From NCBI RefSeq assembly GCF_000734015.1, contig NZ_CP008796.1:1560001-1592000 (forward strand): a stretch of 32,000 bases of DNA, given 5' to 3'. Numbering within the stretch: position 1 is the first letter of the stretch; every line of letters begins with the position of its first letter. Both the position numbers and the translations under genes were made by a program. This DNA comes from Thermodesulfobacterium commune DSM 2178 (lineage in GTDB: Bacteria > Desulfobacterota > Thermodesulfobacteria > Thermodesulfobacteriales > Thermodesulfobacteriaceae). Positions 2,781 to 32,000 of this stretch are shown one piece after another. Under the pieces are notes generated by a model. It saw only the letters and a program-made list of their open reading frames with translations, was not told the origin of the DNA and did not search any database.

Positions 2781-3491
2781 ATGGTTATTCAGCCAATTTT
2801 AGAGAAAATTTTTGGAAAGTTTTATAGAGAGTATGATTTCATAAAAAGATCATATGATATCTTAAAAGATTTTGGTTTTAACGATGGAAATTCCATAGCC
2901 TCTGTTTGTGTATGTAGAGACGAGATCTCCCAGACAGTAAGAAGTCACATAAAAAGAATGTGGGGGGAAGCCTTTAATTTTTCCAGTCTTGCTGGGCTTT
3001 TCACAGCCGGTAAGACTGGGATGAAAGCTTTTATAAGCCATGCTCCGCAGGTAGATGGTAAAGAACGATATGTTTTTTATGCCTTTTCTCACATCGCAAT
3101 TGATGAAAACGAAAACATGGGAGTATGCAAAAGGAAAGGGCTTGAAAAATCTCATGCTTGTGGGGCTTTGTGTCTTTTTCTTAATGAACTTAAGTCAGGA
3201 AAGATAAGTATAAGACTTGATGAAGAGGATATCGAAGAAAGTCTTTTAAAAAGAAGATTGCTTAGAGAATTGAAATACGGAGAGATCCCAGACCTTCTTA
3301 CTCTTACCAAAAAAACCCTTAAGGTAATCGTAGAAGATCTTGAGCATATAATAGAAAAGGTTGTGGATACTAAAAAGGCTGATTATGCCGTTATTTCAGG
3401 AATTCAGGTGCATGGACCAGAGGAAAACTACATCATTCCTGATGAATCTTACGTAGTGGTTAACGGTGAAAAGAAAGAAATAAAAATTTAG
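2781..3491 (+). CDS. conserved hypothetical soluble protein; possible LCIB-type beta-carbonic-anhydrase-like fold (tentative)
   Basis: 236 aa, with no TM helix or signal peptide, and a strong SD AAGGAGG. Candidate metal ligands are C43/C45 (VCVCRDE), H104 (FSHIAID) and C127 (SHACGAL). The spacing resembles the Cys-His-Cys zinc triad I recall for LCIB-family proteins. This rests on memory, not on a search. Confidence 0.35.
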   Translation: MVIQPILEKIFGKFYREYDFIKRSYDILKDFGFNDGNSIASVCVCRDEISQTVRSHIKRMWGEAFNFSSLAGLFTAGKTGMKAFISHAPQVDGKERYVFYAFSHIAIDENENMGVCKRKGLEKSHACGALCLFLNELKSGKISIRLDEEDIEESLLKRRLLRELKYGEIPDLLTLTKKTLKVIVEDLEHIIEKVVDTKKADYAVISGIQVHGPEENYIIPDESYVVVNGEKKEIKI

Positions 3492-23892: not shown

Positions 23893-24034
23893 ATTTTAAA
23901 AATTAGGGTTAAGTATAATTCTACTACCTTTTTATATTTTTCAAAGATTTTTTAGTTTGAGTTTAGTTGATTTTCTTAGTAAACAATTTATATTTAAAAA
24001 GTCGAAGCAACATGAAAATTCTAGGAGGGTAGGG

Positions 24035-25009
24035 ATGAAGCTTACACGAAGACAGTTTTTTGAATTGGGAGGTTGTTTACTTGGGGCAGCAATCATACCT
24101 CGTGAGTCCTATGCCAACACTAAAAAATATGCTACCTTTATCGACATAACCAGATGTGATGGCTGCCAGGGAGAAGAAATCCCTCTTTGTGTCAAAGCCT
24201 GTAGAGAAGAAAATAAAGAAAGGTTTCCTAATCCCAAAAAACCAATTTTACCTTACTGGCCTCGTAAAAATTACGAAGACTGGTCGGATAAAAAAGAGCT
24301 AATAACCACCCTTACCCCTTACAACTGGATTTTTGTACAAAAAGTAGAGGTAGAAGGCAAAACTCTTTACCTTCCAAGACGATGTATGCACTGCGATTCT
24401 CCTCCATGTGTAAAAGGATGCCCTTTTGGAGCATTAACCAGACAGCCTGAAGGTAACAGCGTAATCGACCACAACCTTTGCTTTGGTGGAGCAAAATGTA
24501 GAGATGTATGTCCTTGGCATATCCCTCAACGTCAGGCAGGGGTTGGGCTTTATCTTAAACTTCTTCCCAAGTATGCTGGGGGAGGTGTGATGTATAAATG
24601 TGATCTTTGTGATAGCAGGATTAAAAAAGGGGAAATCCCAGCTTGTGTCATAGCCTGTAAAAATCAGGTCTTTTATTTTGGAGAAAGAAAAGAAGTATAT
24701 CAGATGGCCTACGAAAGAGCTAAAAAAGAAGGGTTATATATCTATGGTGATAAACAAAACGGAGGCACTTCAACGTTATATCTTTCTCCTGTCCCTTTTG
24801 AAAGGATAGACCAATATCTTGTTCAAACCAAAGCAAGGTTCCGGATGCCTGTAAACATACCTAACAGATATCATCAAGAAATTAATCCTATAGGCAAAGG
24901 GATGGTAGCTACTGCCGTGCTTTCCTCTTTAGCTGGCATAGCTGGGGCTTTGATAAATAGATCACAGGATGATTCTAAGCAAAAGGAGGTAGATAGAGAT
25001 GAAGAATAG
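24035..25009 (+). CDS. Tat-exported 4x[4Fe-4S] ferredoxin-type subunit (HybA/DmsB/FdnH-like) with C-terminal membrane anchor
   Basis: Twin-arginine signal MKLTRRQFFELGGCLLGAAIIPRESYA with SD GGAGGG. Four Cys clusters: CDGCQG..C..AC, CMHCDSPPCVKGCP, CFGGAKCRDVCP and CDLCDSRIKKGEIPACVIAC. The C-terminal TM is MVATAVLSSLAGIAGALI. The ORF-track TTG start at 23957 is rejected. Confidence 0.75.
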   Translation: MKLTRRQFFELGGCLLGAAIIPRESYANTKKYATFIDITRCDGCQGEEIPLCVKACREENKERFPNPKKPILPYWPRKNYEDWSDKKELITTLTPYNWIFVQKVEVEGKTLYLPRRCMHCDSPPCVKGCPFGALTRQPEGNSVIDHNLCFGGAKCRDVCPWHIPQRQAGVGLYLKLLPKYAGGGVMYKCDLCDSRIKKGEIPACVIACKNQVFYFGERKEVYQMAYERAKKEGLYIYGDKQNGGTSTLYLSPVPFERIDQYLVQTKARFRMPVNIPNRYHQEINPIGKGMVATAVLSSLAGIAGALINRSQDDSKQKEVDRDEE

Positions 25010-25670
25010 AATCCAAAGATATGGTATTTTGGTTAGGCTTGAACACTGGACAGTGGCTTTATCAGGCATAGCTCTTATCTTTACAGGCCTTGGGTGTCTT
25101 CCCCTTTTTAAGCGGTATTATATCACGGAACTACCAGGATTTGGCTGGACGGCTGATTTTTATACGGTAACTAAGATCCATTATATAGCTGCCATCTTTT
25201 TTGTGATGGGAGTCCTTTTTCATCTCTTTTATCATGGCTTGAGAAAAGACTTTGGCCTTATTCCGAGACCAAGGGATTTTATAGATTCCTTTAAGGTAAT
25301 ACTTGCTTCTTTTGGTATAGGTAAGGAGCCTCCTTGTGATAAATGGCTTCCAGAACAAAGGGTAGCTTATTTGTTTATTGGGTTAAACATCTTGGTGGTA
25401 GGAGGAACAGGCTTTTTAAAGGTACTTAAAAATTTAGAATGGGTGATCTTTTCCCCGAAAACAGAAACTCTTCTTAACCTTACTCATACCATAAGTGGGG
25501 GGATTTTTATCCTGATGTTTATAATTCATGTATTTTTTGTTTTAGCGGTAAAATCTAACTGGCCTTTACTTAAAGCCATGATCACCGGATATGTGGACGA
25601 AGAATATGTAAAAAAGAGACATCATCTTTGGTATGAAAAGATAAAGGGAGAGGTTAATCTGGAAGAATAG
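24999..25670 (+). CDS. membrane b-type cytochrome (FdnI / hydrogenase cytochrome b-like)
   Basis: 223 aa with 4-5 TM helices. The N-terminus has RLEHWTVALSGIALIFTGL with conserved His positions, and further His residues sit in helices (KIHYIAAIFFVMGVLFHLFYH, THTISGG..IIHVF). It overlaps the FeS gene by 11 nt. Confidence 0.6.
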   Translation: MKNRIQRYGILVRLEHWTVALSGIALIFTGLGCLPLFKRYYITELPGFGWTADFYTVTKIHYIAAIFFVMGVLFHLFYHGLRKDFGLIPRPRDFIDSFKVILASFGIGKEPPCDKWLPEQRVAYLFIGLNILVVGGTGFLKVLKNLEWVIFSPKTETLLNLTHTISGGIFILMFIIHVFFVLAVKSNWPLLKAMITGYVDEEYVKKRHHLWYEKIKGEVNLEE

Positions 25671-26880: not shown

Positions 26881-28047
26881 TTAGTTTAAAAGGTCTTTTA
26901 AGGTGAATTTTGAGGTTTGGTCCATCATGAAGGAGAGTTTTTTGATAAAATCTTCAGGAAAAACCTTGCTTAGGTCTTTTAAATCAGGTCTATTTTCTAA
27001 GGTTAGAATTTCTAAAAGGCTTATTTTTTCAGGGGCTTTAGCTAAGTAAATTTTACCCTCTTTTAATACCACCAGGCCCTGGTTTTCAAGCTGTTGTAAA
27101 AGGGTCTCAAATTCAATGGGACAAATTTTTAATCTTTGACAAAGAGTATAAACTTCTATAGGACCTTCAGAATAGAATTTTTCCCCTAAAAGATACATCA
27201 CAAAAAGTGCAAAAAGGTTTCTGGGAATGTTTGGGGTTTCTGACTCCCAGGCCCTTTTTTCTAAAAAAACGATAAGTTCTGCCCCTATCAAAAACACCAC
27301 CCAGTTTAAAAAGATCCAAAGTAAAAAAAGCGGAAAAGCCGCTAATGAACCATAGATTTTAGAGTAACTTACGGCATATTTTACATAAACCGAATATAGA
27401 TAAGAGCTGGTAAACCAAAGACAGGTAGAAAAAACCGCACCAACCAGAGCCTCTTTCTTAGAAACATCTTTGGCAGGAAAAAAAAGATAGATCAACAAAA
27501 AGAAAAGGACCATAAACAAAAAATTTAAAAAAATAAAAAATTTTCCTACGTAGGAAGAAAAAATAAAGGGTACAAGAAAGATAAAAGGGGTAAGGGTGAT
27601 ACAAAGCCAGAAGAAAAGCAACCTTTGATAGAAACTTCTTCTTTTGGTACTTTCAAATATTTTGTTTAAAACATCTTCTATTTGAAACAAAAGTCCCACA
27701 CTCATTATGAAATAAAACAAAACGCTAAACTTCCCCAAGGGAAAGGTCTCAAGCTTTTTGATAAGTTTGATCAGCACCTGAGTGACCTTTTGGGTGGCTT
27801 CAGGGGTAAGATATTGGGTAACCTGTAGGAGAAATTCGTCTATTATCTTTTCCTGAGGAATAAAAACTTTAGCTATAGATAAAATTAGCCCCAAAAGGGG
27901 AATGAGGGTAAGTATGGTGTTAAAAGAAAGTCCTTGGGCATATACTAAAATCTCGTCTTTTAATATTTTTTGCAAAAATGTTTTAAAGAAAAACAGAGGT
28001 CTTTTAGGCATGCTTTCTATTATAAACCTTTTTATAGAAAACCACAA
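26881..28047 (-). CDS. YihY/BrkB-family (ribonuclease BN-like) membrane protein with C-terminal winged-helix-like extension
   Basis: The N-terminus has YAQGLSFNTILTLIPLL, and the polytopic core is typical of YihY. An extra ~110 aa soluble tail (PIEVYTLCQRLKICPIEFETLLQQLENQGLVVLKEGKIYLA) follows. The start is ambiguous: TTG at 28047 or ATG at 28011. Confidence 0.65.
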   Translation of the reverse strand: MWFSIKRFIIESMPKRPLFFFKTFLQKILKDEILVYAQGLSFNTILTLIPLLGLILSIAKVFIPQEKIIDEFLLQVTQYLTPEATQKVTQVLIKLIKKLETFPLGKFSVLFYFIMSVGLLFQIEDVLNKIFESTKRRSFYQRLLFFWLCITLTPFIFLVPFIFSSYVGKFFIFLNFLFMVLFFLLIYLFFPAKDVSKKEALVGAVFSTCLWFTSSYLYSVYVKYAVSYSKIYGSLAAFPLFLLWIFLNWVVFLIGAELIVFLEKRAWESETPNIPRNLFALFVMYLLGEKFYSEGPIEVYTLCQRLKICPIEFETLLQQLENQGLVVLKEGKIYLAKAPEKISLLEILTLENRPDLKDLSKVFPEDFIKKLSFMMDQTSKFTLKDLLN

Positions 28048-28257
28048 AGACCTTAGTTCGTAACAGTTATTTTCAGACTTTTTGATTCATCCATCAACCG
28101 TTAAACACTTTTTAGAAGTCTAAAAAACTAAACTTTTTTAAAGGTTTAGCTATGATGCTTTTTGTTATCAATTTTAAAAAAGTGTAAAAAAATAAAAAAT
28201 TTTTTAAAAACATGAGAAAAATTAAAAATTTTTGGGAAAAACTTTGAATAAAAATAT

Positions 28258-28284
28258 TTGACTTTTAAAATTTAATGACATAAT
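28258..28284 (+). promoter_or_regulatory. candidate sigma70-type promoter of the hydrogenase operon (TTGACT ... TGaCATAAT extended -10)
   Basis: TTGACT at 28258-28263 and TG-n-CATAAT at 28276-28284, about 58 nt upstream of the ATG. The background is AT-rich, so a chance match is quite possible. Confidence 0.3.
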
Positions 28285-28341
28285 TTTAAAATTAGTATTA
28301 CTAAAACAGTAAAACATAAATGCCTGGTTAAGGAGGAGGAA

Positions 28342-29166
28342 ATGTGTCAAGGTTTTGAACCCAAGATAATTGTTTTTGCTTGTAATTGGTGTACTTATGC
28401 TGGGGCTGATTTGGCTGGGTCTTTAAGGTATGCTTATCCGTCTAACGTTTATCTTATCAGGGTTCCTTGTAGCGGAAGAGTAGAGCCAGAATTTATTTTT
28501 TACGCTTTTTTTAGTGGGGCAGACGGAGTGCTTATAGGGGGATGTCATCCTGGAGATTGTCATTATCGCTATGGTAACTATTATGCTCATCGCAGGTATA
28601 ACCTTTTGCAGAGGTTTTTAGAGGTTATAGGGATCGAAAAAGATAGGCTTAGGCTTGAATGGATCTCTGGGGCAGAGGGATTAAAGTTTGCTCAGGTAGC
28701 TACGGAATTTACCGAAAAAATTAAGTCCTTAGGTCCTGTCAAGATAGAGCTTAAGGATAAGCTGGATTGGAAGGAACTTAGTAGGGTGGTTGCTGGGGTT
28801 GGTTCTGCAGGTAAGGTCTTCTGGGATGAATCAAAATGTATGACCGATGTTATTCTTTCTTTTCTTGAGTTTGTTCAAAAAAATTCTTGTGCCCAATGTA
28901 TTCCTTGCAGGATAGGAACTAAAAGAATGCAAGAGGTTTTATCAGAGATTTTAGCAGGTAGTATCGATGGAGATGGCGAAAGATTGTTAAAACTTTTGGC
29001 AGAAGACATAGGATATTCAAGCAAATGTGACCTTGGGAGGCTTGCTGGCAAATCGGTTAAGTATGCCCTTGAATGTTGTTATGAAGATCTCCTTTCGCAT
29101 AAGCAAGGTATATGTAAAAAAACCATCCCGGGACATCCTGGGTGGGATAAAGTAGTGCCTTTATAA
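28342..29166 (+). CDS. fusion protein: MvhD/FlpD-type hydrogenase delta-subunit domain + NuoF-type C-terminal [4Fe-4S] domain
   Basis: The N-terminus KIIVFACNWCTYAGADLAG...VPCSGRV...GADGVLIGGCHPGDCHY is the MvhD/FlpD signature. The C-terminus CAQCIPCRIGT-(about 39 aa)-CDLG matches the Cx2Cx2C...C cluster motif of NuoF/HydB. No FMN or NAD-binding region is present. SD AAGGAGGAGG. Confidence 0.7.
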   Translation: MCQGFEPKIIVFACNWCTYAGADLAGSLRYAYPSNVYLIRVPCSGRVEPEFIFYAFFSGADGVLIGGCHPGDCHYRYGNYYAHRRYNLLQRFLEVIGIEKDRLRLEWISGAEGLKFAQVATEFTEKIKSLGPVKIELKDKLDWKELSRVVAGVGSAGKVFWDESKCMTDVILSFLEFVQKNSCAQCIPCRIGTKRMQEVLSEILAGSIDGDGERLLKLLAEDIGYSSKCDLGRLAGKSVKYALECCYEDLLSHKQGICKKTIPGHPGWDKVVPL

Positions 29167-29193
29167 AAATAAGAATCTGTCGGAGGTGAAAAG

Positions 29194-29452
29194 ATGAAAG
29201 AGGTTCAGTTAACCATCGATGGTATAAGCGTTAAAGTTCCTGAGGGAACTACTATATTGGAGGCTGCTAAAAAAGTGGGGATAAAAATTCCTACATTGTG
29301 TTATTTAAATGGAGTAGGGTTAAAACATATCAAACATGATGTGGGGGCTTGTAGGGTTTGTGTGGTAGAGGTTCAAGGTAAAAACGATTTGTTGTCTTCT
29401 TGCAATACTTTGGTAGAAGAAGGTATGGTGGTTTACACACATACTCCAAGGG
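29194..29452 (+). pseudogene. hydA: [FeFe]-hydrogenase catalytic subunit, 5' fragment (2Fe-2S ferredoxin-like domain), interrupted by IS
   Basis: MKEVQLTIDGISVKVPEGTTILEAAKKVGIKIPTLCYL...CRVCVVEV...SCNT is the N-terminal Fer2 domain of NuoG/HydA-type proteins. After ...VYTHTPR the reading frame enters IS sequence and stops at 29520. Confidence 0.85.
29444..29452. repeat. target-site duplication, left copy (CTCCAAGG[G])
   Basis: Identical 9-mer at 30791-30799. The true TSD is 8 or 9 bp because the junction G is ambiguous. Confidence 0.85.
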
Positions 29453-30790
29453 GACACTTGTCAAGAGAATTGTGTCTCCTTATAAAATCTCTTTACAAAC
29501 ATTTGCCTCAATTCGTATAAAGCAGACTTAATTAAAGGAAGTGGTTTTTGCCATCTCGTTTTCTGAATCCGACTTACTGTTATGTATATCGCAACCTCTG
29601 CTGTCTTGATTGATTGAAAATATCCCCCTGTATTTACCCTTATCAGCTCTATCCTGCTATTTATATTCTCAACCACATTCGTCGTGTATATATACCTCCT
29701 CACCCCCTCAGGATATTTCTTATAAACAAAATAATGCTCCTTCTTTTTCAAAAGTCCCTTTATATAAGCTGGATACTTCTTCTCATAACTCTTACATAAT
29801 TCCTCAAATCTATTTAAGGCCCTCTCATACTCCTCTATCCTCTTTATAATGCTTAACTCCTCATAAAATTTTTTAGCATCCTGCTTAGACATGTTCCTGT
29901 TGATGTTCCTTTGCATGTGTACAAAACAAAGCTGATGATCTGTCTCAGGAAAGAGGGCTTTTATGGCTTGAGTAAGGCCAGGAAAATCATCACTCACTAT
30001 TACCATAACCCTCTTAACTCCCCTCTTTATCAAATCATTAAGTATCTGGAGCCAGTCCTCCTTCGTCTCTGAACCAAAATAAATGTAATAAGAAAGTAAA
30101 TTTTTTCTTCCCTCCATATCTATCCCGATGATATTATAAATAACTGCTTTTCTGATTCTGTTGGCTTCGGTATCTTTTATCTGAGTATGATAAGCGTCTA
30201 TAAACATAGCAAACAAATTTTCTGGCAATTCTTTGGTTTTTAATTCTTTGGCTTGGTTATACAATTCTTCTTTAATTTCTTCTATTTGTTCTGGGGAGTA
30301 GGGGAGTTTCATAGATTGCAAGAGGGCTTTGATTTTATTGGGGGAGTAGCTTTGGAGAACGAGGTTAAGGATAAAGTCCTGGAAGGATTCATCAGCTTTT
30401 TGCCATTCAGGAGGAAGAATAGCAGGTCTGAATTCAGATTTTCTATCTCTTGGGACAGAGATACCAAGGTTACCTAAGAAACAGGCAAGTTGTCTTTCAT
30501 AGTAACCATTAGCTTTATTATCAATACTATCTCTAAGGAATATTTCTCTTTCTTTTTTCATGAGAGCGTTTAAGAGGAGTGCAGCAGCCATTTTGATACC
30601 CTCTTTTGATTCAATTTTTGAGATTTCACTTAAAACTTTTTCTAAATCTAAGTCTAAGTTTTCCATTTTACAGACCTCCTGGTTAGTTTAGTCTTTTAGG
30701 TTTTATGTTATCATTAATTTAAAAAATATTAAAAATTTTTATTATGCCTCTAAAATATTTTATTAAAAGACACAATTTATATTCTACTCC
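29453..30790 (-). mobile_element. IS256-family insertion sequence (~1.34 kb), intact
   Basis: It carries a single 401-aa mutator-type transposase and is flanked by an 8-9-bp direct repeat. Both ends carry a subterminal inverted AATTGTGTCT..T.ATAAAAT block: left at 29468 onward, right as the reverse complement ending about 30777. The termini are GGA...TCC if the TSD is 8 bp. Confidence 0.85.
29461..30666 (-). CDS. IS256/mutator-family DDE transposase
   Basis: Family-typical blocks are FMFIDAYH (Asp), IVSDDFPGLTQAI (Asp), CFVHMQRN and TTNVVENINSRI (Glu). 401 aa. The stop lies 8 nt from the IS end. Confidence 0.9.
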   Translation of the reverse strand: MENLDLDLEKVLSEISKIESKEGIKMAAALLLNALMKKEREIFLRDSIDNKANGYYERQLACFLGNLGISVPRDRKSEFRPAILPPEWQKADESFQDFILNLVLQSYSPNKIKALLQSMKLPYSPEQIEEIKEELYNQAKELKTKELPENLFAMFIDAYHTQIKDTEANRIRKAVIYNIIGIDMEGRKNLLSYYIYFGSETKEDWLQILNDLIKRGVKRVMVIVSDDFPGLTQAIKALFPETDHQLCFVHMQRNINRNMSKQDAKKFYEELSIIKRIEEYERALNRFEELCKSYEKKYPAYIKGLLKKKEHYFVYKKYPEGVRRYIYTTNVVENINSRIELIRVNTGGYFQSIKTAEVAIYITVSRIQKTRWQKPLPLIKSALYELRQMFVKRFYKETQFS

Positions 30791-30799
30791 CTCCAAGGG
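30791..30799. repeat. target-site duplication, right copy (CTCCAAGG[G])
   Basis: Identical to 29444-29452. Removing 29453-30799 restores ...THTPRVLSTRKLNLELMLSDHHLDC... in frame. Confidence 0.85.
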
Positions 30800-32000
30800 T
30801 TCTTTCTACCAGAAAATTAAACCTTGAGCTTATGCTAAGCGACCATCATTTGGACTGTCCTACCTGTCCTAAAAATGGGGTATGTGAGCTACAAAGTTTA
30901 TGTGCTGAACTTACCATAAGAAGTATAAGACCCAAAGGGGAGAGAAAGACTTATGAGATAGACTGTTCTTCTCCTTCGATCGTTAGAAATCCTAACAAGT
31001 GTATTGTCTGTCAGAGATGTATCACCGCTTGTAAGGTTTTACAGACGGTTGATGTGTTAGAGCTTTATGGGAATGGGTTTGAGGCCATAGTAAGGCCGGT
31101 GGGTGGCAAGTCTCTCATAGAGACTAAGTGTGTTGCCTGTGGACAGTGTGCTTTGGTGTGTCCTACCGCGGCTATCGTAGAAAAAGACGACACGTCTCTT
31201 GTTTGGGAGGCTTTAAGTGATCCTAAAAAGCATGTGGTTGTTCAGACAGCACCTGCTACCCATGTAACCATAGGTGAGGCCTTTGGGTTACCTCGAGGTA
31301 CAGATATTACTGGAAAAATGGTTACAGCCTTGAAAATGCTTGGGTTTGATGCGGTTTTTGATACTAACTGGTCGGCAGATCTTACCATCATGGAAGAGGC
31401 GTATGAGTTGATCCACAGGATTAAAAACAACGGGGTCCTTCCTCAGTTTACCTCCTGTTCTCCTGCATGGATTAAGTTTGTTGAGGAGTTTTACCCAGAC
31501 CTAATACCTCATCTTTCAACCTGCAAGTCTCCTCAACAGATGTTTGGAGCTGTAGCCAAAACCTATTATGCAGAAAAGAAGGGTATCAATCCTGAAGACA
31601 TTTTTGTGGTTTCAATCATGCCTTGTACTGCAAAGAAATATGAAGCTGCTCGTCCTGAAATGGTTTCTGCCCAAAAGTACTGGAATAACCCTAATATCAC
31701 AAGAGATGTAGATGTGGTGTTAACCTCAAGAGAACTTATCAGGATGATCAGAGAGTCTGGGATAGACTTTGCCAATCTACCAGATAGTCCTTATGACCCT
31801 ATTATGGGTGAGGGTACAGGAGCCGCTCAGATTTTTGGGGCAACCGGGGGAGTTATGGAGGCAGCCTTAAGAACTGCTTATGAGGTGGTCACAGGAAAGA
31901 CTTTACCAAGACTTGATTTTGAAGAAGTAAGAGGGATGAAGGATATTAAAGAAGCGGCTGTAGAGATGAACGGGGTAACCATAAAGGTATTGGTAGCCCA
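30800..32000 (+). pseudogene. hydA: [FeFe]-hydrogenase catalytic subunit, 3' fragment (His-ligated 4Fe-4S, 2x[4Fe-4S], H-cluster domain), continues past window end
   Basis: Hand translation in frame 1 is stop-free from 30781 to 32000. It gives DHHLDCPTCPKNGVCELQ, CIVCQRCITAC, CVACGQCALVCP, FDTNWSADLTIMEE, TSCSPAW (L1), CKSPQQM and MPCTAKKYE (L2). It is absent from the ORF track because no stop codon lies inside the window. Confidence 0.85.

Follow-up and report, generated by a model that had tools for sequence, protein, structure and literature searches.

Two unrelated machines are known that couple hydrogenases to electron bifurcation: the flavin mononucleotide (FMN) and iron-sulfur (Fe-S) Bfu core of the HydABC enzymes, and the flavin adenine dinucleotide (FAD) of HdrA, which is reached from the [NiFe]-hydrogenase Mvh by way of MvhD. 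The Bfu/HydABC family is defined by a conserved BfuBC core with FMN, six Fe-S clusters and a NuoE-like C subunit (PMC9304861). The wiring in HydABC is H-cluster-A3-A2-A1-B2-FMN, and each HydB binds tightly to a single HydA (PMC9499530). In the Mvh-Hdr, Fdh-Hdr and Elp-Hdr complexes, the connecting subunit is MvhD (PMC12350162); its homologue BamF joins the HydABC-like BamGHI to the HdrA-like BamE (bioRxiv 10.64898/2026.04.10.717634). In sulfate reducers, Hdr-like proteins play a central part in energy metabolism (PMC3333476). A stretch of 32,000 nucleotides from the genome of Thermodesulfobacterium commune DSM 2178 (contig NZ_CP008796.1, positions 1,560,001 to 1,592,000; below, the window) holds a gene whose 274-aa product joins an MvhD domain to a remnant of HydB, and the gene of a cytoplasmic [FeFe]-hydrogenase subunit, hydA1, begins directly downstream. 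The fusion protein is very probably the partner subunit of HydA1 and docks on it through the HydB remnant. The system brings parts of both machines together, namely a HydABC-type [FeFe] subunit, the HydB module of the kind that contacts HydA, and an MvhD plug.

The initial annotation, made from the sequence alone, did not recognize this combination as a described hydrogenase class, and no paper describing it was found in the searchable literature. The reviews covered there on multimeric [FeFe]-hydrogenases, Bfu enzymes and flavin-based bifurcation contain neither such a fusion nor any MvhD-linked [FeFe]-hydrogenase, with some key reviews lying outside the search.

Domains and ligands of the fusion protein

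The gene and its two parts are located in the window as follows:

28342..29166, + strand: MvhD-HydB(C-terminal) fusion gene, 274 aa, ATG start (list of open reading frames (ORFs), Pfam)
28366..28734, + strand: MvhD/FlpD domain, aa 9-131 (PF02662), with the invariant Cys14, 17, 43, 68 and 73
28753..29118, + strand: HydB/NuoF-derived module, aa 138-259 (PF10589), with the NADH_4Fe-4S core at 28846-29100

The protein is 100% identical to a T. commune DSM 2178 entry (P0001), and the source records name it 'methyl-viologen-reducing hydrogenase subunit delta'. Its N-terminal half was initially annotated as a complete MvhD/FlpD domain. This is borne out by Pfam: the FlpD match to aa 9-131 (E 2.6e-52, 176.5 bits against a cut-off of 22.3) spans all profile positions, 1-123 of 123, and the motifs quoted for the domain are present. 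The solved structure 5odc_D, MvhD from the Mvh-Hdr of Methanothermococcus, shares 57% identity with the N-terminal half (E 3.7e-48); further matches are the MvhD-type subunits found in the complexes Fdh-Hdr-Fmd and Elp-Hdr. An AlphaFold2 model of the fusion, built on 30 family members, is confident, with a mean predicted local distance difference test score (pLDDT) of 87 and a predicted TM-score (pTM) of 0.85. It superposes on the MvhD structures 5odc_D and 8rvu_F with target-normalised TM-scores of 0.88 and 0.93, respectively. In an alignment of 30 homologues from three phyla, with identity down to 44%, Cys14, 17, 43, 68 and 73 are present in all 30. These five residues are predicted to comprise the ligands of a [2Fe-2S] cluster and one extra cysteine. 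Sequence, fold and ligands all place the protein in the MvhD family.

The C-terminal half contains the last strand before a four-helix bundle and then the bundle itself. It was described at the outset as the cluster-binding tail of NuoF/HydB with everything that binds FMN and NAD(H) missing, and both parts of this description hold. The NADH_4Fe-4S profile (PF10589) matches aa 169-253 over its full length, 1-85 of 85 (E 2.1e-17, 63.2 bits against a cut-off of 23.5), and no match to Complex1_51K (PF01512) or SLBB was obtained anywhere in the 274 residues. The NuoF model TIGR01959 reaches 49.5 bits against a cut-off of 558.65, with profile positions 293-401 alone being matched. The fusion is not a NuoF/HydB flavoprotein; the FMN domain is absent. 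The four cysteines of the N3/B2-type [4Fe-4S] site (Cys183, 186, 189 and 229) are invariant in 30 of the 30 homologues.

The designation 'NuoF-type' for this module is correct as to the fold, which is that of NuoF/HydB, and can be refined as to the origin. The best solved match of aa 138-259 is HydB of A. woodii (E 7e-19; 9e-19 for 7q4v_B 414-522); other near relatives are NfnB of Caldicellulosiruptor and Thermococcus, the B subunit of HydABCSL, and T. maritima HydB, whereas complex I NuoF is matched far more weakly (about 1e-9). In the Foldseek comparison, 96-102 residues of the modelled C-terminal half superpose on the HydB/NfnB four-helix bundle with a root-mean-square deviation of 2.2-2.8 Å. 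In HydB, this bundle ends in a Cys3His Zn site, and complex I has no such site (Furlan et al., PMC9499530). The fusion has Cys166, His253 and Cys258 (codons at 28837-28839, 29098-29100 and 29113-29115 of the window) aligned with the conserved C/H/C positions of NfnB/HydB. Since the best matches are HydB/NfnB-type subunits and this triad corresponds to a Zn site absent from complex I, the C-terminal half is assigned on sequence grounds as a piece of the bifurcating-type (Bfu) HydB, not of the respiratory complex I NuoF. The triad is probably the remnant of the HydB Zn 'hinge' site. It is found in 28 of the 30 homologues, and all three residues are replaced in the same two; this joint loss suggests that the metal site is retained in the others. 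Cys246, kept in 25 of the 30, may be the fourth ligand.

HydA1, its interruption and the linked loci

The next ORF starts 27 nt past the fusion gene, at 29194, with its own Shine-Dalgarno sequence GGAGGTG; it has 108 codons and begins with a Fer2_4 [2Fe-2S] domain. The initial annotation took it for the start of a HydA with the architecture of multimeric enzymes. The spacing, the Shine-Dalgarno sequence and the Fer2_4 domain are as described, but the gene is split after codon 86 by an insertion sequence (IS):

29194..29452, + strand: 5' segment of hydA1 (codons 1-86, Fer2_4); the frame stops at 29520, after another 22 codons inside the IS
29453..30790, - strand: IS256-family element of 1338 bp; its transposase gene (401 aa, minus strand) occupies 29461-30666
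30791..32000, + strand: 3' segment of hydA1 (His-ligated [4Fe-4S], 2x[4Fe-4S] and H-domain; Pfam)

The 5' segment is colinear with an intact metagenomic allele (L003, 2459-2717; 99.9% identity). The 3' segment matches NADH-G_4Fe-4S_3, Fer4 and Fe_hyd_lg_C and reaches residue 486 of 587 at the window end. The transposase is identified by Transposase_mut (PF00872, E 1.2e-63) and by the IS256 model NF033543 transpos_IS256 (275.7 bits against a cut-off of 150). The boundaries of the element follow from the empty-site comparison, in which window positions 28000-29452 and 30791-32000 are colinear with L003 with a 9-bp overlap. This overlap corresponds to a perfect 9-bp target-site duplication, CTCCAAGGG, at 29444-29452 and 30791-30799. 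Terminal inverted repeats were found only in imperfect or offset form in an ungapped comparison. Removal of the element and one copy of the duplication in silico restores the frame, and 477 of 486 residues then equal those of the L003 allele. The [2Fe-2S], His-ligated [4Fe-4S], 2x[4Fe-4S] and H-domain architecture claimed for HydA thus becomes visible only after this removal and is not present in the window as it stands.

The same IS junction occurs in an independent draft assembly of DSM 2178 (L001, 581 of 581 nt), and the gene is free of the element in three other samples, all metagenomic. The sequences mark the insertion as a recent, strain-level event. Disrupted by the IS, hydA1 is knocked out in DSM 2178, and the hydrogenase system is probably inactive in this strain. 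The insertion is probably also polar on the downstream genes for a periplasmic hydrogenase and for hydGFE.

The closest solved structure to the intact HydA1 orthologue of 587 aa is the bifurcating HydA1 of T. kivui (8a6t_A, E 3e-195), followed by A. woodii HydA1 (E 3e-189); the match to the ferredoxin-dependent CpI is weaker (1e-149). The orthologue passes the model NF040763 'NADH-dependent [FeFe] hydrogenase, group A6' with 878.9 bits against a cut-off of 765. HydA1 can accordingly be placed by sequence in the HydABC clade; it is of the M3 type and cytoplasmic. All three H-cluster motifs (P1, P2, P3) are kept in 10 of 10 fusion-linked HydA1 proteins. In eight of them, the canonical P1 sequence TSCCPxW is replaced by TSCSP[AG]W, a form shared with HydA1 of A. 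woodii (7q4v_A); the motif lies at about 31426-31446 in the hydA1 of the window, and all copies of HydA2 are canonical. The second cysteine of P1 is presumably a ligand of the [4Fe-4S]H subcluster in CpI. The same NCBIfam model would name HydA1 'NADH-dependent', both in T. thermophilum (L019, 10853-12616) and in the window, with no NADH-binding subunit being linked. Such names are likely misleading for the fusion-linked HydA1. This is an annotation trap, as a curated model assigns NADH dependence to a catalytic subunit whose linked genes include no NADH-binding subunit.

In T. thermophilum (locus L019), where the fusion is 97% identical to the T. commune protein, the fusion gene and hydA1 are followed by genes for the large subunit (458 aa) and the small subunit (108 aa) of a second [FeFe] enzyme; next in order come an aspartate-ammonia-lyase-like gene, hydG, an ORF of 88 aa, hydF and hydE. 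The order is repeated in Desulfonauticus, in Thermodesulfovibrio and in one metagenome-assembled genome. The second enzyme is located at 12643-14379 of L019, and its counterpart lies just past the window end in T. commune. The 108-aa small subunit of T. thermophilum carries a twin-arginine signal (MQKVNRRDFIKF...), and RR motifs are found in six of six separate small subunits, so the second enzyme is taken to be a Desulfovibrio-type periplasmic hydrogenase and not the partner of the fusion. One operon therefore holds a cytoplasmic and a periplasmic (Desulfovibrio HydAB-type) enzyme, which is reminiscent of hydrogen-cycling models. The order in Thermodesulfitimonas is hydA2, small subunit, cytochrome b, fusion and hydA1. 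Desulforudis-like loci contain additional stand-alone N3-only proteins and more hydA copies.

In all lineages examined, hydA1 is located downstream of the fusion gene, either with a gap of 20-146 nt or with one N3-only gene between them. Pairwise identities of the fusion and HydA1 are correlated (r = 0.93 over 36 lineage pairs). The identity of HydA1 is 83% between Thermodesulfobacterium and Thermodesulfovibrio, which belong to different phyla; this suggests that the fusion-hydA1 unit has been transferred between thermophilic sulfate reducers. No full NuoE/NuoF-type, hydB or hydC gene was found within about 10 kb of the fusion in 9-10 lineages. The initial remark that no NuoE/NuoF flavoprotein genes precede the fusion is thus correct, and none follow it in the intact relatives either; in particular, hydB and hydC do not stand immediately downstream of hydA1 there.

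The family is small. Clustering at 90% identity gives about 30 clusters for it out of 5.8 billion, and when 1.84 billion representatives at 50% identity were searched with a profile, one two-domain representative was obtained, all other matches covering the MvhD part only. The named carriers are Thermodesulfobacterium, Desulfonauticus, Thermodesulfovibrio, Desulforudis, Ammonifex, Thermodesulfitimonas and Peptococcaceae. Among the members found, the fusion is restricted to thermophilic sulfate or sulfur reducers of three phyla. A search with the C-terminal half alone returned five matches, all of them short gene calls, one of which led to a metagenomic fusion homologue (L101, 319-1146). This gene has an in-frame TGA at 517-519, exactly at the invariant Cys68, so that GG-C-HPGDCHY becomes GG-TGA-YPGDCHY, and a 7-bp hairpin follows the TGA. 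The product is full-length if the codon is read as selenocysteine. Compared with the corresponding region of homologues that encode Cys, the hairpin has no clear advantage in strength, and the selenocysteine assignment is tentative. A TGA of this kind may be the reason for the short gene calls (104-136 aa, 'NADH_4Fe-4S domain-containing protein') in the Thermodesulfovibrio and Thermodesulfobacterium records.

Stand-alone proteins of 117-182 aa consisting of the NuoF/HydB [4Fe-4S] four-helix module were also observed (L013 12704-13057, L015 10834-11382, L101 1183-1539). These N3-only proteins adjoin M3-type hydA genes, at times alongside the MvhD fusion, and resemble minimal HydB remnants.

Upstream of the fusion gene, one further feature has to be listed:

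28048..28341, no strand: AT-rich spacer between a BrkB-like gene and the fusion gene, 294 bp, divergent flanking genes

The region had been described as a 290-bp AT-rich promoter region. The length and composition agree (294 bp; 22.1% G+C versus 37.4% window-wide), but promoter-like hexamers are not above shuffled sequence (4 sites versus 4.7 expected). The operon promoter presumably lies within 28048-28341, judging from position alone. A strong Shine-Dalgarno sequence, GGAGGAGG, is found at about 28330-28338, ahead of the ATG of the fusion. The product of the divergent gene (26881-28047, minus strand) is a membrane protein of the BrkB/YihY family, whose C-terminus weakly matches an Rrf2-like winged helix (28.8 bits, slightly under the cut-off). 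At 23957-25670, 2.7 kb upstream, there are genes for a four-cluster Fer4_11 protein with a twin-arginine translocation signal (RRQFF) and for a Ni_hydr_CYTB-type cytochrome b. This pair was considered as the membrane partners known from the Thermodesulfitimonas and Desulforudis-like hydrogenase loci; the identity is just 26-29%, and no link is claimed. The genes at 1-24000 of the window are transporters, regulators and housekeeping genes, with nothing Hdr-like among them. They include a gene of the LCIB_C_CA family (2781-3491; beta-carbonic-anhydrase-like, of the algal CO2-concentrating type) between two DASS/CitMHS-type anion transporters.

Proposed electron path and alternative readings

The 274-aa protein would be an adaptor, or electron-transfer subunit, of the cytoplasmic HydA1 encoded directly downstream. 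In HydABC, as in complex I, the B2/N3 cluster exchanges electrons with the [2Fe-2S] cluster A1/N1b in the NuoG-like N-terminus of HydA. The fusion keeps exactly the B2 module of the HydABC relay, so its HydB remnant, the [4Fe-4S] B2/N3 bundle, is expected by homology to dock on the NuoG-like N-terminus of HydA1. The N-terminal MvhD domain would have taken the place of the FMN/NAD(H) domain, of the other HydB clusters and of HydC. Electrons would pass from the H-cluster through A3, A2 and A1 of HydA1 to the [4Fe-4S] cluster of the HydB remnant, then to the [2Fe-2S] cluster of the MvhD domain, and finally to an HdrA-like flavoprotein whose gene would lie at another place in the genome. Candidate partners are HdrABC and a homologue of HdrA associated with Qmo/Flx. 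The outcome would be H2-dependent flavin-based bifurcation or its reverse, in an [FeFe] counterpart of Mvh-Hdr. The chances of this full reading, in which the HdrA-type partner encoded elsewhere is inferred, are about evenly balanced.

The choice of HdrA as the acceptor is consistent with the solved structures, as MvhD connects to HdrA in all those matched (5odc, 7bkb, 8rvu, 9sw2), its [2Fe-2S] cluster passing electrons one at a time to the bifurcating FAD of the HdrA-type flavoprotein. It is also consistent with a second family, in which an FlpD domain is fused directly to 2x[4Fe-4S] and the H-domain (Fe_hyd_lg_C). These proteins of 640-770 aa (P0247, P0317 and P0326 family; loci L102, L103, L104 and L105) fall into at least 34 clusters when grouped at 90% identity; between their MvhD domain and that of T. 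commune, the identity is 61%. No description of them was found in the searchable literature. In both sampled lineages, hdrA adjoins the direct fusion. In L105 (6292-12307), hdrA-hdrC-hdrB are located immediately upstream of it; in L102 (3650-13074), the end of hdrA overlaps its start within a cluster ordered GlcD-like FAD oxidase, HdrD-like, GcvH, HdrD-like, HdrA, fusion and LplA. On the strength of this adjacency, [FeFe]-hydrogenases wired to HdrA through MvhD seem to exist.

MvhD domains were also seen fused to response-regulator receiver, winged-helix (BamF-like), CCG/HdrD-like, DUF4062 and GltD-like NAD(P)H modules (P0155, P0184, P0194, P0277, P0280, P0274, P0193, P0276, P0290). MvhD seems to be a widely reused plug.

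Several observations weigh against an HdrA-type partner of the T. commune system. No hdrA-like gene was found within about 10 kb of the fusion in 9-10 lineages of three phyla. This contrasts with the direct MvhD::HydA fusions and also with stand-alone MvhD genes, for which an hdrA homologue was the nearest large ORF within 3 kb in 60 of 79 loci. The control loci were the stand-alone MvhD genes closest to the domain of the fusion, taken from a contig scan with MvhD peptide patterns; the same scan recovered one full-length fusion (T. thermophilum, L019) and otherwise generic MvhD genes. Furthermore, the N3-only proteins paired with M3 HydA in Desulforudis-like loci represent a HydA plus N3 unit without MvhD. 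A precedent for partner sharing in trans, though no proof here, is provided by Methanothermococcus, where one MvhD serves both Mvh and Elp (PMC12350162).

These same observations could arise from a self-contained heterodimer. The fusion would then add a [4Fe-4S] and a [2Fe-2S] cluster to the HydA1 relay and serve as the point at which a soluble carrier, for example ferredoxin or flavodoxin, delivers or picks up electrons, with neither an HdrA partner nor bifurcation. Besides the absence of hdrA, hydB and hydC from all of the 9-10 neighbourhoods, this is in line with the remaining operon genes, which encode only another hydrogenase and maturases, and with the N3-only proteins beside M3 HydA genes, which suggest that minimal relay subunits are viable. 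The heterodimer is the foremost alternative but the less likely reading. MvhD is the HdrA connector in all matched structures and in the Bam complex, and direct MvhD::HydA fusions adjoin hdrA. The domain has also kept 57% identity to an archaeal MvhD together with five conserved cysteines, more than the four that cluster ligation needs. No HydA of the HydABC clade is known to rely on ferredoxin as its sole carrier, which also counts against this alternative.

Alternatively, HydA1 might still function in an NADH/ferredoxin enzyme of the canonical HydABC kind whose hydB and hydC genes lie outside the locus; the fusion would then be an accessory or alternative subunit. The group A6 assignment of HydA1 and its closeness to the solved bifurcating HydA1 proteins agree with this. 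However, the HydB module of the fusion would be expected to compete with a full HydB for one site (as follows from PMC9499530). In addition, hydB and hydC are absent from all linked loci, while the fusion is always there and co-diverges with hydA1. This alternative is therefore highly improbable.

That the fusion is a decaying HydB remnant without present function, in an operon dead in DSM 2178, is scarcely credible: the family is very small and hydA1 is split by the IS256-family element in two independent assemblies of the strain, but the nine cluster cysteines are invariant in 30 sequences of three phyla down to 44% identity, the metal triad co-varies, the AlphaFold2 model is confident (pLDDT 87, pTM 0.85), gene order is conserved, a tentative selenocysteine-containing variant and IS-free alleles in other samples occur, and the insertion is recent and strain-level, with a perfect duplication and a restorable frame.

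If the MvhD plug of the fusion is used as in the solved complexes, [FeFe]-hydrogenases can also feed HdrA-type bifurcation. In sulfate reducers, H2 would then be coupled directly to the reduction of ferredoxin and of a thiol/disulfide or Qmo/Dsr-linked acceptor. The cytoplasmic donor for the HdrA-like proteins of sulfate reducers is an open question (Ramos et al. 2012, PMC3333476), and on this reading the fusion-HydA1 pair would be a concrete, testable candidate. More broadly, thermophilic sulfate or sulfur reducers and, separately, some Clostridia-like bacteria might possess [FeFe]-hydrogenase:HdrA complexes in which an MvhD plug feeds the bifurcating FAD, the T. commune adaptor shifting a HydABC-type hydrogenase from FMN (Bfu) to FAD (HdrA) bifurcation; this generalization is a tentative one, offered as a possibility and not as an expectation. 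The fusion is also a natural minimal construct for studies of HydB docking on HydA.

Comparison with described systems

Among the HydABC (Bfu) enzymes of T. maritima (7P5H), A. woodii (8A5E/7Q4V) and T. kivui (8A6T), HydA1 finds its own clade. The C-terminal half of the fusion is a homologue of the four-helix bundle that holds the [4Fe-4S] cluster B2 in HydB, and its C/H/C triad matches the Zn site. Unlike HydB, the fusion lacks the FMN/NAD(H) domain, the N-terminal [2Fe-2S] cluster and the C-terminal 2x[4Fe-4S] bridge domain, and no HydC is linked. Because just one HydB cluster is kept and neither hydC-like nor full hydB-like genes occur in the linked loci, the enzyme falls outside Bfu/HydABC by the BfuBC-core definition, though its catalytic subunit is of that clade.

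With MvhAGD-HdrABC, and with the Fdh-Hdr and Elp-Hdr complexes, the N-terminal half shares the MvhD fold, 57% identity (to 5odc_D) and all conserved cysteines. The differences are that the hydrogenase is of the [FeFe] and not the [NiFe] type, that MvhG and MvhA are absent, that MvhD is joined covalently to a HydB remnant, and that hdr genes are unlinked. The class II benzoyl-CoA reductase BamBCDEFGHI has the same wiring logic as proposed here, with the MvhD-homologous BamF bridging BamGHI to BamE. In that complex, BamH retains its flavin, there is no hydrogenase and all the bam genes are clustered; BamF is a separate, longer protein whose winged-helix domain contacts BamI. A reduced beta subunit is also found in the non-bifurcating, NADH-dependent HydAB of Syntrophus aciditrophicus, which is a two-subunit derivative of the HydABC type (PMC7311640). 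The beta subunit of that enzyme still binds FMN and NADH, whereas the fusion cannot, as it has no Complex1_51K domain.

The direct MvhD::[FeFe]-hydrogenase fusions are similar to the T. commune system in that an MvhD domain has been recruited to an [FeFe]-hydrogenase. The hyd island of L105 also resembles the fusion loci in having TM1266-like and aspartase-like genes, hydGEF, and a HydA2-like enzyme with its small subunit. The direct fusions have hdrA next to them and contain no HydB remnant, MvhD being joined straight to an M2-type HydA; in the T. commune system, the HydB remnant makes the link to an M3-type HydA and hdrA is unlinked. With a HydA1 of the HydABC clade and a C-terminal half of HydB type, the HydA1-fusion system looks like a HydABC derivative in which MvhD has replaced the flavin module.

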